A stretch of 64,000 nucleotides of DNA from Escherichia coli (GCF_050920415.1 NZ_CP169309.1); one strand, 5' to 3'. Counted from the stretch's first letter, positions 12,390 to 17,490 are shown. The notes: a model not told the origin generated them from the sequence alone. Program-made: numbers and translations.

Positions 12390-12821
12390 GGATAAAAAAG
12401 CCCGCGCTGGGAGGCACGGGCGGCAAGGAATAAAACGTGAAGAAATTTTCACAGGCGCATAATAATCCGATGTTGCCAGATTTTGCAACTGCATCATCTG
12501 GTTATTATGTGAGCTGGAAAATCAGATTCTGTATGGACTGAAGCCATGCTGTTATTCAGGGCCAAAGAACGGACTTTTTCTTCCGCCTTTCAGGTAACGA
12601 TTAATGAGAAAAAGACTGAAATGCCCCCTCGGGGAGGAGGATAGTAGAAAAAAGAACCCGCCAGCAAAAATATTGGGGGGATGAACAGCTTTCGCTACTC
12701 TGGTTGCTGGCGGGTATAGCTCCTCATGAATAAGAATGTCGCGGTATTTTTTAATGGAAATGAGAATCATTGTCAACTGATTGCGTGTGTTGTCTTCATA
12801 CATGACTGGTAAAGGTGATTC

Positions 12822-12854
12822 AGGCCATCAGAGTTTTGCTGATGGCCTTTTTTC
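12822..12854 (+). terminator. tR'-like terminator immediately upstream of the holin gene
   Basis: AGGCCATCAG-agttttg-CTGATGGCCT followed by TTTTTTC, ~35 bp before the holin start. Confidence 0.55.
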
Positions 12855-12886
12855 TTTCCGGTAGCACAGGTCTGTCGGGGCGGGAT

Positions 12887-13102
12887 ATGTATCAGATGGA
12901 AAAAATATCAACAGGCATTGCCTACGGCACCTCCGCAGGCAGTGCTGGCTACTGGTTTTTACAGTGGCTTGATCAGGTCAGCCCGTCACAGTGGGCTGCG
13001 ATTGGTGTACTGGGAAGTCTGGTTCTGGGCTTTCTGACTTATCTGACGAATCTGTACTTCAAAATCAGAGAAGACAGAAGAAAGGCTGCGAGAGGAGAGT
13101 AA
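12887..13102 (+). CDS. Pinholin, phage-21 S21-like (71 aa)
   Basis: [71 protein letters not shown] matches what I recall of S21; track ORF 12815 trimmed to the Met after the terminator. Confidence 0.8.
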
Positions 13103-13106
13103 TATA

Positions 13107-13457
13107 ATGGTCCAAAACTATGAAATGATTGTGAAAGGGATCCGCAATTTTGAGAATAAAGTTACGGTAACTTTAGCATTACAGGACAAAGAACGCTTTG
13201 ACGGTGAAATTTTTGACCTGGACATCTCGCTGGACCGTGTTGAAGGTGCCGCGCTGGAGTTTTATGAGGCAGTAGCCAGAAGGAGCATCAGACAGGTCTT
13301 CCTGGATGTTGCTGCCGGGTTATGTGAAGGGGATGAGCAGTCGCCGGAAAAGCGCCCCGTAATTTTAGAGGCGCAGAATGTGTGGATAACCTACAAAGGA
13401 AAGCTACCAGGAAGAATTACTGGTTCTCTGAAGACTCCTCCGGAATCACAACCTTAA
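13107..13457 (+). CDS. Hypothetical 116-aa protein embedded in the lysis cassette
   Basis: Starts 4 bp after the pinholin stop and ends 63 bp before the endolysin; soluble, acidic, no family recognised. Confidence 0.5.
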   Translation: MVQNYEMIVKGIRNFENKVTVTLALQDKERFDGEIFDLDISLDRVEGAALEFYEAVARRSIRQVFLDVAAGLCEGDEQSPEKRPVILEAQNVWITYKGKLPGRITGSLKTPPESQP

Positions 13458-13520
13458 GTCACTGACCGGAACAGATAAACCTGTCCGTGGGCAGAAACCG
13501 ATAAATCCTGATAAATATCC

Positions 13521-14054
13521 ATGAACGCAAAAATCAGATACGGCCTGTCGGCTGCCGTTCTGGCACTGATTGCCGTCGGTGCTCCCGCGCCTGATATTCT
13601 CGACCAGTTTCTGGATGAAAAAGAAGGTAACCACACAACGGCATACCGCGATGGTTCCGGCATCTGGACCATCTGTCGGGGTGCCACGATGGTGGATGGA
13701 AAACCCGTTTTTCCCGGTATGAAACTGTCGAAGGAAAAATGCGACCAGGTTAACGCCATTGAACGTGATAAGGCGCTGGCATGGGTGGAGCGCAATATTA
13801 AAGTACCACTGACCGAACCACAGAAAGCGGGTATAGCGTCATTTTGTCCCTATAACATTGGCCCCGGTAAGTGTTTCCCGTCGACGTTTTATAAGCGGCT
13901 GAATGCCGGTGATCGTAAGGGTGCATGCGAGGCGATTCGCTGGTGGATAAAAGATGGTGGGCGCGATTGCCGCATACGTTCAAATAACTGCTATGGACAG
14001 GTTATTCGTCGTGACCAGGAAAGCGCATTAGCCTGTTGGGGGATAGATCAGTGA
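13521..14054 (+). CDS. SAR endolysin (GH24 T4-lysozyme-like with N-terminal signal-anchor-release segment)
   Basis: Hydrophobic N-terminus ([15 protein letters not shown]) then catalytic E-D-T region ([20 protein letters not shown]). Confidence 0.8.
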
Positions 14055-14515
14055 GCAGAGTCGCCGCGATTATTTATGCTCTGGTTATCTGCATCATCGT
14101 CTGCCTGTCGTGGGCGGTCAATCATTACCGTGATAACGCCATCGCCTACAAAGAACAGCGTGATAAAAAAGTCAGTGAGCTGAAGCAGGCGATCGCCACC
14201 ATCGCTGACATGCAGCAGCGTCAGCGTGATGTTGCTGCGCTCGATGCAAAGTACTCGAGAGAATTAGCCAATGCGAAAGCTGAAAATGAAACTCTGCGCG
14301 CTGATGTTGCCGCTGGTCGTCGTCGGTTGCACATCAAAGCAGTCTGTCAGTCAGTGCGTGAAGCCACCACCGCCTCCGGCGTGGATAATGCAACCAGCCC
14401 CCGACTGGCAGACACCGCTGAACGGGATTATTTCACCCTCAGAGAGCGGCTGATGACGATGCAGATGCAACTGGAAGGGGCACAGGAGTATATCCGCACT
14501 CAGTGCATTAAGTAG
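14051..14515 (+). CDS. Rz i-spanin
   Basis: GTG start overlapping the endolysin stop (GTGA); N-terminal TM ([19 protein letters not shown]) and coiled coils; closely resembles lambda Rz as recalled. Confidence 0.75.
14271..14453 (+). CDS. Rz1 o-spanin lipoprotein embedded in Rz (+1 frame)
   Basis: 60 aa with lipobox LPLVVVGC and PPPPP tract; near-identical to lambda Rz1 as recalled. Confidence 0.75.
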
Positions 14516-14557: not shown

Positions 14558-14908
14558 ATGCCATCACGAATCCCACGCGCCTGCCGTAAGCGTGGATGTG
14601 CAGGTACAACCACAGACAGTTCTGGTTACTGCGATAAACATCGTGGCGAAGGATGGGTACAGCATCAACGCGGACTGAGCCGCCACCAGCGTGGCTATGG
14701 CTCGAAATGGGATGCCATACGTGCGCGCATACTGAAGCGTGATAATCATCTGTGTCAGAACTGCCTGCGCAATGGGAGAGCCGTTGAAGCCAGAACTGTG
14801 GACCACATCATTCCGAAAGCTCATGGTGGCACGGATGCAGACAGTAACCTGCAGAGTCTGTGCTGGCCCTGTCATAAAGCAAAAACAGCGCGCGAACGCA
14901 TCAATTGA
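14558..14908 (+). CDS. HNH endonuclease (terminase-associated)
   Basis: Cys-rich HNH motif (HLCQNCL...DHIIPKAHGG...CWPCH) directly upstream of terS/terL. Confidence 0.75.
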   Translation: MPSRIPRACRKRGCAGTTTDSSGYCDKHRGEGWVQHQRGLSRHQRGYGSKWDAIRARILKRDNHLCQNCLRNGRAVEARTVDHIIPKAHGGTDADSNLQSLCWPCHKAKTARERIN

Positions 14909-15056: not shown

Positions 15057-15539
15057 ATGTCAGGACCTCCGAAAACCCCGCCACGCCTGCATTTGATACG
15101 AGGCAACCCCTCAAAGCGTCCCGTTAAAGACCACAAAAAAACCGCTAAAAAGGATGAAAAAGGTCTTCCTAAAATTCCGCAGCATTTAGGGGCTCAGGGG
15201 AAGTACTGGTTCAGGCGAATGGCGGAAGAGCTGAATGCGGAAGGGATCATTTCTCAGCTTGATGCACGTGCGCTCGAGTTGCTGGTGGAAGCCTACACCG
15301 AATATCGGCATCACTGCGAAACACTCGATGTTGAGGGGTATACTTACCGCACGGAAACGCAGAGCGGTGATGTACTGATTAAGGCGCACCCCGCGGCGGC
15401 AATGAAAGCGGATGCCTGGAAGCGGATCCGGGCAATGCTTGCAGAGTTTGGTATGTCACCGGCAAGCCGGGCTAAAGTAAATATCGCCGGACCGGATGAT
15501 GTTGATCCGCTGGCGGAGCTTTTAAAAGCGAGAGACTGA
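15057..15539 (+). CDS. Terminase small subunit (P27-family-like)
   Basis: Position before TerL and after HNH; basic N-terminus. Confidence 0.65.
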   Translation: MSGPPKTPPRLHLIRGNPSKRPVKDHKKTAKKDEKGLPKIPQHLGAQGKYWFRRMAEELNAEGIISQLDARALELLVEAYTEYRHHCETLDVEGYTYRTETQSGDVLIKAHPAAAMKADAWKRIRAMLAEFGMSPASRAKVNIAGPDDVDPLAELLKARD

Positions 15540-17296
15540 TGGCAAAAGTGGCTGACGGGATCCGCTACGCCGAACGTGTTGTTGCAGGAGAAATTGTTGC
15601 TGGCGAATTTGTCCGCCTGGCCTGCCAGCGTTTTCTTGATGATCTGAAGTACGGCGAAGAGCGGGGGATTTATTTCAGTGAACCCCGTGCGCAGCACATC
15701 CTGAATTTCTACAAATTTGTGCCTCATGTAAAAGGGGCGCTGGCAGGCCAGCCCATTGAGTTGATGGACTGGCATGTATTTATCCTCATTAATATTTTTG
15801 GTTTTGTCATTCCGCTGGTCAATGAAGAGACCGGGGAAGTTGTCATGCGCAGCGATGGCAGCGGACGTCCGGTGATGGTGCGCCGGTTCCGGACGGCGTA
15901 CAACGAAGTCGCCCGTAAAAACGCAAAATCAACTCTGTCATCGGGTATCGGCCTGTATATGACGGGGGCAGATGGTGAAGGCGGAGCTGAGGTGTATTCA
16001 GCCGCAACCACGCGTGACCAGGCCAGAATCGTGTTTGAAGACGCCAAAAATATGGTCAGAAAAGCCCGGTCGACACTCGGGCGGTTGTTTGATTTCAACA
16101 AGCTGGCGATTTACCAGGAGCAGAGCGCATCAAAATTTGAACCGCTTTCTTCGGATGCAAACAACCTGGATGGTCTGAACATTCACTGCGCCATTATTGA
16201 TGAGCTGCATGCACATAAAACCCGTGACGTGTGGGACGTTCTGGAAACGGCAACCGGTGCTCGTCTGCAGTCCCTTTTATTTGGTATCACCACGGCAGGG
16301 TTTAACAAGGAAGGGATTTGTTACGAGCAGCGTGATTACGCCATCAAGGTATTGCGTGGCTATAACAGCGACGTGGAGGGCGCGGTAAAAGACGACTCCT
16401 ACTTTGCGATTATTTACACCCTCGATGAGGGAGATGATCCGTTTGATGAAACGGTCTGGCAGAAAGCGAATCCCGGCCTGGGCATCTGTAAACGCTGGGA
16501 TGATCTGCGTCGCTTGGCGAAAAAAGCGAAAGAACAGGTCTCTGCTCGGGTGAATTTTTTTACCAAACACATGAATGTGTGGGTAACAGCAGAGTCTGCC
16601 TGGATGGACATGATTAAGTGGGAGAAGTGCGAATACATTGCCCCACGACATGAGCTGAAAACGTATCCCATGTGGGTCGGCGTTGACCTTGCTCATAAGA
16701 TTGATATCTGTGCGGCGGCAAAACTCTGGCGAACGGATAACGGGCATGTTCATGCCGATTTTAAATTCTGGCTTCCGGAAGGACGGCTGGAACGATGCTC
16801 GCGGCAGCAGGCAGAACTTTACCGGAAGTGGGCGGAGATGGATAAGCTGATTCTGACGGATGGTGATGTTATCGATCATGCTCAGATAAAAAGTGACTTA
16901 CTGGAATGGATTGGTGGTGAAAACCTCAGGGAACTGGGATTTGACCCGTGGAGCGCGATGCAGTTCAGCCTGGCACTGGCTGAAGAAGGGATACCGCTGG
17001 TGGAGGTTCCGCAGACGGTTCGCAATCTGTCAGAGGCCATGAAGGAAACGGAATCACTGGTCTATGCCGGGCGTTTCCATCACAGCAATCATCCGGTCAT
17101 GAACTGGATGATGTCTAACGTTACGGTAAAACCGGACAAAAACGACAATATCTTCCCGAATAAATCCACGCTGGAAGCCAAAATCGACGGTCCTGTTGCG
17201 ATGTTTACAGCAATGAGCCGGATGCTGGTCAATGGCGGTGAACCGGAGCCGGATCTGTCTGAGCATCTGGTCAGCGTTGGTATCCGCTCGCTTTAA
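15539..17296 (+). CDS. Terminase large subunit
   Basis: 585 aa with ATPase N-domain and nuclease C-domain architecture; overlaps terS stop. Confidence 0.9.
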
Positions 17297-17307
17297 CCGA
17301 GGTCATT

Positions 17308-17490
17308 ATGTTTCTGATAATTCTCACGCCACTGGTGGGCGTGCTGGGGGCGCTTTTGCTGTCGTATGGCACATGGCTGATTTATCCCCCGGCAGGTTTT
17401 GTTGTTGCCGGGGGGCTGTGCCTGTGCTGGTCGTGGCTGGTTGCGCGTTATCTCGATCGTGGTCACCGGGTCGCCTCCGGAGGTGAGTAA
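17308..17490 (+). CDS. Small two-TM membrane protein (60 aa) between terminase and portal
   Basis: GAGGT SD 5 nt before ATG; stop overlaps portal ATG (TAATG); two hydrophobic helices. Confidence 0.45.

Follow-up and report, generated by a model that had tools for sequence, protein, structure and literature searches.

The stretch of DNA analysed here consists of 64,000 nucleotides (nt) of Escherichia coli (GCF_050920415.1, NZ_CP169309.1), and its whole length is called the window. It contains a prophage in which a small open reading frame (ORF), located at 17308–17490 on the plus strand, lies between the gene for the large terminase subunit (TerL) and the gene for the portal protein. The small ORF is the already known gene of the YmfR / PHROG-502 family. 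This membership names the gene and leaves its function unexplained. We consider it highly probable that the ORF is a genuine late gene of this family and that its product is a two-helix hairpin in the inner membrane; the gene is called the hairpin gene below. The hairpin gene is a fixed component of the P27-type module, which consists of HNH endonuclease, P27-family small terminase subunit (TerS), TerL, hairpin, portal, protease and HK97-fold capsid genes, from enterobacterial phages to an Azospirillum phage. As a whole, the best explanation, which we hold tentatively, is that the YmfR-family hairpin, as the product of a fixed gene of the P27-type module, would be a membrane accessory of head morphogenesis or packaging. 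The mechanistic part of this explanation, a non-structural membrane accessory acting in head morphogenesis or packaging, is possible but doubtful, and its basis is only the gene order.

The small ORF starts with ATG, comprises 60 codons and ends with TAA. The TerL gene ends with its stop codon at 17296, and the small ORF begins 11 nt downstream. As read from the sequence, its Shine-Dalgarno (SD) sequence GAGGT is located at 17299–17303 on the plus strand, and 4 nt (17304–17307) separate it from the ATG. According to the locus comparison, this SD is gagg in all close relatives. At the other end, the stop codon (17488–17490) and the portal ATG (17490–17492) share A17490 and form the overlap TAATG at 17488–17492. 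The near-perfect SD of the portal gene, GGAGGTGA (17479–17486, plus strand), lies inside codons 58–60 (Gly-Gly-Glu) of the small ORF. In the relatives, the junction with the portal gene is an equivalent stop/start overlap (TAGTG, TGATG, GTGA, ATGA) or a gap of 2–3 nt; over the inspected contexts, the junctions are such overlaps or gaps of 2–16 nt. The original prediction, made from the window alone, had described a hydrophobic ORF of 60 amino acids (aa) with two transmembrane (TM) segments, a good SD and a stop codon overlapping the portal start. All of these features are present in the sequence as described, the grand average of hydropathy (GRAVY) being +1.05 with two helices predicted.

Two candidate RNA elements in the small ORF were rejected. 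The palindrome TCGCCTCC/GGAGGTGA at 17471–17486 had suggested a hairpin masking the portal SD, by which translation of the portal would depend on reading of the small ORF. The fold of this segment is, however, no different from that of shuffled sequence (z = 0.0), and the palindrome is missing in the P27-type allele. An internal terminator was considered, as the SfII record annotates a 'putative rho-independent terminator' within the ORF. The equivalent site in the window (17341–17353) is a 5-bp stem, with 6 matches against 4.8 expected by chance.

According to the profile search, the small protein matches PHROG 502 ('membrane protein'; phrog_502, E = 1.2e-24) over residues 1–54. All of the 133 diverse representatives of the family match phrog_502, and 30 of them also match phrog_7105. 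The 53-aa hairpin protein of phage Evi belongs to phrog_7105, and it cross-matches to phrog_502 at 1e-6. The small protein is 75% identical to gp3 of Shigella phage SfII, the sequence of which is that of E. coli K-12 YmfR, and 73% identical to L37 of phiP27. For the named YmfR-family proteins of phages (phiP27, SfI/SfII/SfIV, ST64B and phiKO2), the identity ranges from 73 to 80%, with the same length of 60 aa and the same two-helix hydropathy. The window allele is distinguished from these YmfR-family proteins at both ends: it starts with MFLIIL instead of MIMLIL, and its tail is GHRVASGGE instead of TQSSVGGGK.

The existing annotations of this family are uneven. K-12 YmfR (b1150) is an 'IPR020297 domain-containing protein'; its gene belongs to the e14 element and is flanked by ymfN, a remnant of the terminase gene, and beeE, a remnant of the portal gene. 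L37 of phiP27 is annotated as a 'putative integral membrane protein', and further annotated homologues are found in SfI, SfIV, ST64B (Sb3), phiKO2 (gp3), PY54, several Yersinia and Klebsiella phages, and Azospirillum phage Cd (gp30). In the identical RefSeq region the protein is WP_001406797.1, 'hypothetical protein', and RefSeq names the P27-type homologue 'ymfR: protein YmfR' in many E. coli genomes. The PHROGs category of the family is 'moron, auxiliary metabolic gene and host takeover'. When the small protein was searched against Pfam, NCBIfam and PADLOC, no family reached the threshold. Comparison with the PDB, both by sequence profile and by fold, gave nothing meaningful; the best fold match is the hairpin of V-ATPase subunit e, with an E value of 7.8. 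No match was obtained in a tblastn search of a phage collection with two distant family members, probably because the queries are short and hydrophobic and because of the low-complexity filter.

An open frame by itself is uninformative, as 129 ORFs of at least 30 aa are present in 12 kb. The frame of the small ORF is intact in all of the 91 related loci (81 of 60 aa, 6 of 59 aa and 4 of 52 aa). These are all the gathered loci with a tblastn match, and they were gathered using a single protein as the query. Among 47 distinct close coding sequences, the variable columns within codons 1–47 number 18, 6 and 31 at codon positions 1, 2 and 3, respectively. The ratio of nonsynonymous to synonymous substitution rates (dN/dS) is 0.26 in the hairpin core, 0.73 in the tail and approximately 0.09 in the adjacent portal gene. 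A phmmer search of 1.8 billion cluster representatives gave 149 matches at E ≤ 1e-3, nearly all of which are 45–80 aa long and have the same core. Because of this conservation and the coding-type substitution pattern, the ORF is regarded as real and not as a product of chance. These features indicate that ORF 17308–17490 is a genuine late prophage gene under purifying selection. The original prediction had proposed conservation in related prophages as a check, and absence of the frame between otherwise identical terminase and portal genes as grounds for rejection. All 91 loci have an intact frame, and the deletion is found in none of 60 sampled E. coli records described below.

An antisense ORF at 17293–17466 on the minus strand was also considered. 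It is open in most relatives, which is expected if the sense strand avoids TTA, CTA and TCA, and it was rejected, because the 18/6/31 variability fits only the sense frame. In the comparison with SfII, the proportion of synonymous differences (pS) in the small ORF is 0.28, about half of that in the adjacent portal gene (0.57). The low value would fit recombinational homogenisation of the ORF core or an extra constraint at the nucleotide level.

The hairpin gene is located directly 3' of the TerL gene in each of the 12 contexts inspected: the e14 remnant, phiP27, SfII, phage Evi, phiKO2, Azospirillum phage Cd and metagenomic loci at 32–45% identity. Wherever the downstream gene can be identified, with the exception of one metagenomic lineage described below, the hairpin gene is directly 5' of a portal gene of family PF04860. 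The upstream genes are those of a P27-family TerS and often HNH. This order persists in modules that have an S49 protease in place of the S78 protease, and in an alphaproteobacterial phage. In HK97, gp2 (TerL) runs directly into gp3 (portal), and no hairpin gene is present. Likewise, no hairpin gene is found in 77 of the 78 evaluable IMG/VR loci whose portals are 85–98% identical to that of HK97. Thus, the statement of the original prediction that HK97-like modules run TerL straight into the portal is correct for HK97 and its close relatives. Its description of the ORF as 'inserted' is not appropriate, because the gene is a fixed constituent of the P27-type module across very distant phages. 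The presence or absence of the hairpin gene is clade-wide, not sporadic.

The arrangement in E. coli prophages is mosaic. In the sliding comparison, the similarity of the window to P27 and SfII starts at approximately 17280; the TerL proteins of these phages differ from that of the window, and the hairpin and portal are 80–90% identical. The similarity to phage Evi stops at approximately 17230; the TerL of Evi is 96% identical, and its hairpin, which is distantly related, and its portal are different. Two independent mosaic junctions are thus placed on the plus strand at the 3' end of the TerL gene, at approximately 17230 and approximately 17280. According to this comparison, the hairpin gene stays with the portal gene and not with the TerL gene at both junctions. 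This linkage is concluded because one TerL is paired with a different portal and hairpin (Evi), and different TerLs (P27 and SfII) are paired with the same hairpin and portal. At the 3' end of the TerL gene (approximately 17230–17296), the last approximately 14 residues of TerL are common to the window and to the otherwise diverged TerLs of P27 and SfII, which share the portal type, and the 96%-identical TerL of Evi has a different C-terminal tail together with a different portal. The type of portal and the C-terminal tail of TerL thus seem to vary together.

From 1,380 matching E. coli records, 60 rows were sampled evenly. The whole region is found in 13 of them, the hairpin and portal genes with another TerL in 21 (annotated ymfR), and only this TerL in 26. 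All 60 matches are single uninterrupted pieces, and flanks from which the ORF is deleted were not observed in any of them. By estimation from even sampling, a close homologue is present in roughly 780 of 5,426 complete E. coli genomes. Recombinants within the ORF were also found. In loci L056 and L049 (match at 3501–3683 in each), the N-terminal part is of the window type, and the C-tail and the start of the portal are of the P27 type, so that the C-tail alleles GHRVASGGE and TQSSVGGGK have been swapped by recombination. It seems from these sequences that crossovers between the terminase module and the portal module occur in the conserved core of the ORF.

The hydrophobic stretches of the small protein are residues 1–25 and 29–46, with YPPAG between them, and its basic residues (Arg47, Arg51 and Arg54) are confined to the C-tail. 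A model was calculated by AlphaFold2 using the family alignment of 133 sequences, which are cluster representatives at 50% identity. The model consists of two helices (residues 2–25 and 27–57) with a mean predicted local distance difference test score of 87.9. Helix 1 (residues 2–25; 17311–17382, plus strand), defined by hydropathy and the model, contains the conserved residues Gly11, Gly14, Leu17, Tyr20, Gly21, Trp23 and Leu24. The tight turn Tyr26-Pro27-Pro28-Ala29-Gly30 (17383–17397, plus strand) is predicted to be at the periplasmic face and is the best-conserved part of the family. The membrane part of helix 2 (residues 31–47; 17398–17448, plus strand), assigned from hydropathy, the model and column conservation, contains the invariant Gly35 and has Arg47 at its end. 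The variable basic C-tail (residues 48–60; 17449–17487, plus strand) is predicted to be cytoplasmic, and its last codons double as the ribosome-binding site of the portal gene.

The mean number of Lys and Arg residues per sequence across the 133 representatives is 2.1 in the N-flank, 0.14 in the loop and 2.2 in the C-flank. From this distribution and the positive-inside rule, the N- and C-termini are predicted to be inside and the turn to be periplasmic. The product is therefore predicted to be a helical hairpin of the inner membrane, its two ends being cytoplasmic and its YPPAG turn lying at the periplasmic face. Conservation peaks at residues 14–35: Gly14 is conserved in 95% of the representatives, Leu17 in 75%, Tyr20 in 68%, Gly21 in 99%, Trp23 in 85%, Tyr26 in 77%, Pro28 in 94%, Ala29 in 79%, Gly30 in 83%, Ile or Val at position 32 in 73% and Gly35 in 100%. 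The small protein carries the whole family core, G..G......G.W...PPAG....G, as Gly11, Gly14, Gly21, Trp23, Pro27-Pro28-Ala29-Gly30 and Gly35. The cytoplasmic ends are variable and the least conserved in the family. Many members end with G-G, K-E-G or E-G, and such endings would fit an in-frame GGAGG or AAGGAG for the downstream gene. Tandem-duplicated members with two hairpins per protein are also present (P0145, 122 aa; P0155, 102 aa; P0161, 108 aa; and L096, 127–495), and at least one of them is still directly upstream of a portal gene. The portals adjoining a hairpin gene often start with a short motif rich in Phe and Leu, and in HK97 a comparable aromatic patch is found a little farther from the start; no inference is drawn from this.

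According to the explanation that we prefer, the hairpin would be made late in the lytic cycle in step with TerL and portal, so that its amount would follow theirs. It would give the portal, or the terminase–procapsid complex, a membrane address or a nucleation site, like the T4 membrane factor with the portal. Genes in head operons tend to adjoin the genes of their partners. A role as an assembly accessory is favoured because of this tendency and because the position is kept beyond what is usual for accessory genes. In T4, initiation of the head depends on a membrane factor interacting with the portal, and this is the sole precedent in tailed phages (PMC3185693). A more specific form of the preferred explanation is that the hairpins form a membrane platform, possibly an oligomeric ring, that tethers or nucleates the portal dodecamer or the terminase–procapsid complex at the inner membrane; such a platform would be a long shot. 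If it existed, membrane-associated head assembly or packaging would be standard in the large P27-type branch of proteobacterial HK97-fold phages and dispensed with in HK97 proper.

Several points weigh against an assembly accessory. HK97 and 77 of the 78 loci with HK97-type portals do without a hairpin gene in head assembly, and the gene is therefore not generally required for assembly of HK97-fold heads. The conserved half of the protein is the membrane- and periplasm-proximal one (residues 14–35), and the presumed contacts to portal and TerL would lie in the cytoplasmic tails, the least conserved part. In one metagenomic lineage (L093, 4247–5050; L094, 2546–3349), a 267-aa gene without a Pfam match separates the hairpin gene from the portal gene, and TerL is still adjacent. 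A comparison of the small protein with T4 gp40 by hhalign showed no similarity (probability 0.4%). In the literature, no functional study of or experiment on the YmfR family was found, and the only mentions of ymfR are in lists of genes and in one table of RNA-seq data. According to the review cited for T4 (PMC3185693), membrane-associated proheads have not been demonstrated in other phages.

The hairpin may instead be a lytic-cycle membrane effector that is unrelated to assembly and owes its place in the head operon solely to late timing and co-inheritance. Examples are holin triggering or lysis timing, an effect on the membrane potential, late blocking of the entry of competitor DNA, and binding of a conserved host inner-membrane protein. 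A late membrane effector is nearly as likely as an assembly accessory, and it too is unlikely rather than likely in absolute terms. The conserved half (Gly14, Gly21, Trp23, Pro28 and Gly35) is consistent with a partner located within the membrane or with self-assembly there. HK97-type modules manage without the gene, as expected of an accessory; the size and the predicted topology, with both termini inside, resemble those of class II holins; and the PHROGs category given above includes host takeover. However, it is rare for an accessory gene to stay at precisely the same place, stop/start overlaps included, in phages of alpha- through gammaproteobacteria. No match to a holin, defence or exclusion family was obtained, and the lysis cassette of the prophage is already complete, with an S21-type holin, lysozyme and Rz.

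The original prediction had proposed a moron, for example a membrane-acting exclusion peptide, or a packaging accessory. A moron would have been acquired independently, would be expressed from the repressed prophage and would benefit the lysogen, e.g. as a superinfection-exclusion peptide like HK97 gp15. The product is small and membrane-embedded, like HK97 gp15 and T4 Imm, and in e14, a decayed element, ymfR has stayed intact although only fragments are left of the terminase and portal genes beside it. A weak promoter-like match is present at 17293–17321. This match, the only one on the plus strand, extends over the start codon, so that transcription from it would start within the ORF; moreover, promoter-like matches are at chance level, with 4 found against 3.4 expected. 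A terminator is impossible at the end of the gene, because the stop overlaps the portal ATG. The GC content at third codon positions (GC3) is 0.62, similar to those of TerL (0.57) and portal (0.59); the overall GC content of 0.59 fits a composition rich in Gly, Ala, Leu, Val and Pro. No presence/absence polymorphism or deletion variant is seen among close relatives, and the gene is fixed across very distant phages. The small protein has no PADLOC match and no similarity to the exclusion proteins compared; hhalign gave probabilities of 0.1% for Imm and 0.2% for gp15. Under SOS induction, the RNA of e14 ymfR rises by log2 4.5 (approximately 23-fold) with the other e14 genes (PMC10012262). This rise argues against strong constitutive expression, though weakly, as e14 is rearranged. 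With no promoter or terminator of its own, a GC3 like that of the flanks and no deletion variants, the hairpin gene is very improbable as a moron. The packaging accessory is the more plausible of the two ideas in the original prediction, on the basis of gene order only.

A contrast is provided within the same prophage by an AT-rich ORF of 113–123 aa with a lipoprotein-type signal, MRKSVVTLACLFFISAC, at 23575–23946 on the plus strand. Its GC content is 0.31 and its GC3 is 0.21, against approximately 0.50 in its flanks. It is located between the tail-chaperone genes and the tape-measure gene, the site of the gp15 moron in HK97, and it is followed at approximately 23962–23985 by a terminator-like hairpin, ccgcagaagcgg with a T-run. 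No Pfam match was obtained for its product. This ORF looks like a genuine moron.

The small ORF might also be a spacer for translational coupling, which ferries ribosomes from TerL to the portal start and carries the portal SD, its peptide being functionless. Tight overlaps on both sides are observed in all lineages, the portal SD is part of the last codons, and the tail, with the dN/dS noted above, is nearly neutral. The near-perfect portal SD makes coupling unneeded, however, and HK97 couples TerL to the portal directly, spacer-free. The conservation of Gly14, Gly21, Trp23, Pro28 and Gly35 over 133 clusters, with the hydropathy kept, would be needless for a spacer, and the proposed SD-sequestering hairpin is no stabler than shuffled sequences. 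We regard a spacer as very improbable. Finally, the ideas that a frame in an intergenic linker is open here by chance, or that it encodes a head–tail joining protein like lambda gpW, can practically be dismissed: short ORFs are abundant, lambda W holds the same position and several GenBank phage records use its name, but a chance frame is refuted by the conservation and the coding-type substitutions, and gpW is hydrophilic and has no BLASTP or profile similarity to the small protein.

As a discovery, the gene is ordinary. It has been known since the sequencing of phiP27, it has the K-12 name ymfR, a PHROG and an InterPro entry, and the exact protein is in RefSeq. What is noteworthy is the constancy of a 'hypothetical' membrane hairpin gene in the middle of a head-assembly and packaging operon, from Azospirillum phages to E. 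coli phages. We know of no membrane step in current models of HK97-type head assembly. The hairpin would be either such a membrane step in assembly or packaging, or a late membrane effector that has long been co-inherited with TerL and portal.

The flanking genes of the module are all on the plus strand. The HNH endonuclease gene (14558–14908; PF01844, E = 1.9e-16), with the same annotation in the identical RefSeq region, is the first gene of the P27-type packaging module. It is followed by the gene for the small terminase subunit of the P27 family (Terminase_4; 15057–15539; PF05119, E = 2.3e-25, in agreement with RefSeq), the gene for the 585-aa TerL (15539–17296; PF03354 and PF20441, E = 4e-52) and, beyond the hairpin gene, the gene for the 413-aa HK97-type portal protein (17490–18731; PF04860, E = 3.3e-107). 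The lysis cassette of the prophage is at 12815–14515 and comprises the S21-type holin (12815–13102; PF04971, E = 3e-35), DUF1327, lysozyme and Rz. Over the packaging and head region, the window and E. coli E21845/O/A (L001, NZ_CP076272) are 100% identical, but their lysis cassettes, upstream of approximately 14500, are different. That of E21845/O/A has two other holins and an M15 peptidase, which places a further mosaic junction upstream of the HNH gene. In two samples of the Joint Genome Institute (L006, 2284–4007; L008, 3–1345), TerL is called as separate ORFs for its ATPase part and its nuclease part, two in all. In a closely related contig (L007, 2283–4007), TerL is intact with 574 aa. The split in L006 and L008 may be a frameshift, an assembly error or real.

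Among the known systems, class II holins and pinholins, such as S of phage 21, are alike in their size of approximately 60–70 aa, two TM helices, N-in/C-in topology and basic C-tail. The hairpin gene, however, lies outside the lysis cassette, and the prophage has its own S21-type holin. The small protein has no match to the holin families of Pfam, and only one of the 133 relatives has a sub-threshold match to Phage_holin_10. A holin role is unlikely. HK97 gp15 and T4 Imm are likewise small and hydrophobic (62–83 aa) and act in the inner membrane. HK97 gp15 is the annotated product of a moron in the tail region with a putative terminator directly downstream, whereas the hairpin gene shows no marks of a moron.

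Lambda gpW (68 aa) occupies the same slot, between A (TerL) and B (portal), with overlapping stop and start codons. It is soluble and hydrophilic, in contrast to the GRAVY of +1.05 for the small protein; BLASTP gave no alignment between the two, and the hhalign probability is 2%. Homologues of the small protein are labelled 'head-tail joining protein W' in the phage records ON470580, ON470603, ON470584 and PQ793804. This label appears to be a positional mis-annotation, and in practical terms it appears wrong for this gene. T4 gp40, the membrane-associated initiator of the head vertex with the portal gp20, is a protein of 114 aa that is largely hydrophilic and has no two-helix hydrophobic hairpin, and its gene is far from the portal gene. 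The likeness to T4 gp40 is that of a phage-encoded, non-structural and, for the hairpin by prediction, membrane-associated protein tied to the portal, the putative tie of the hairpin being adjacency of the genes and co-inheritance with the portal at the two mosaic junctions.

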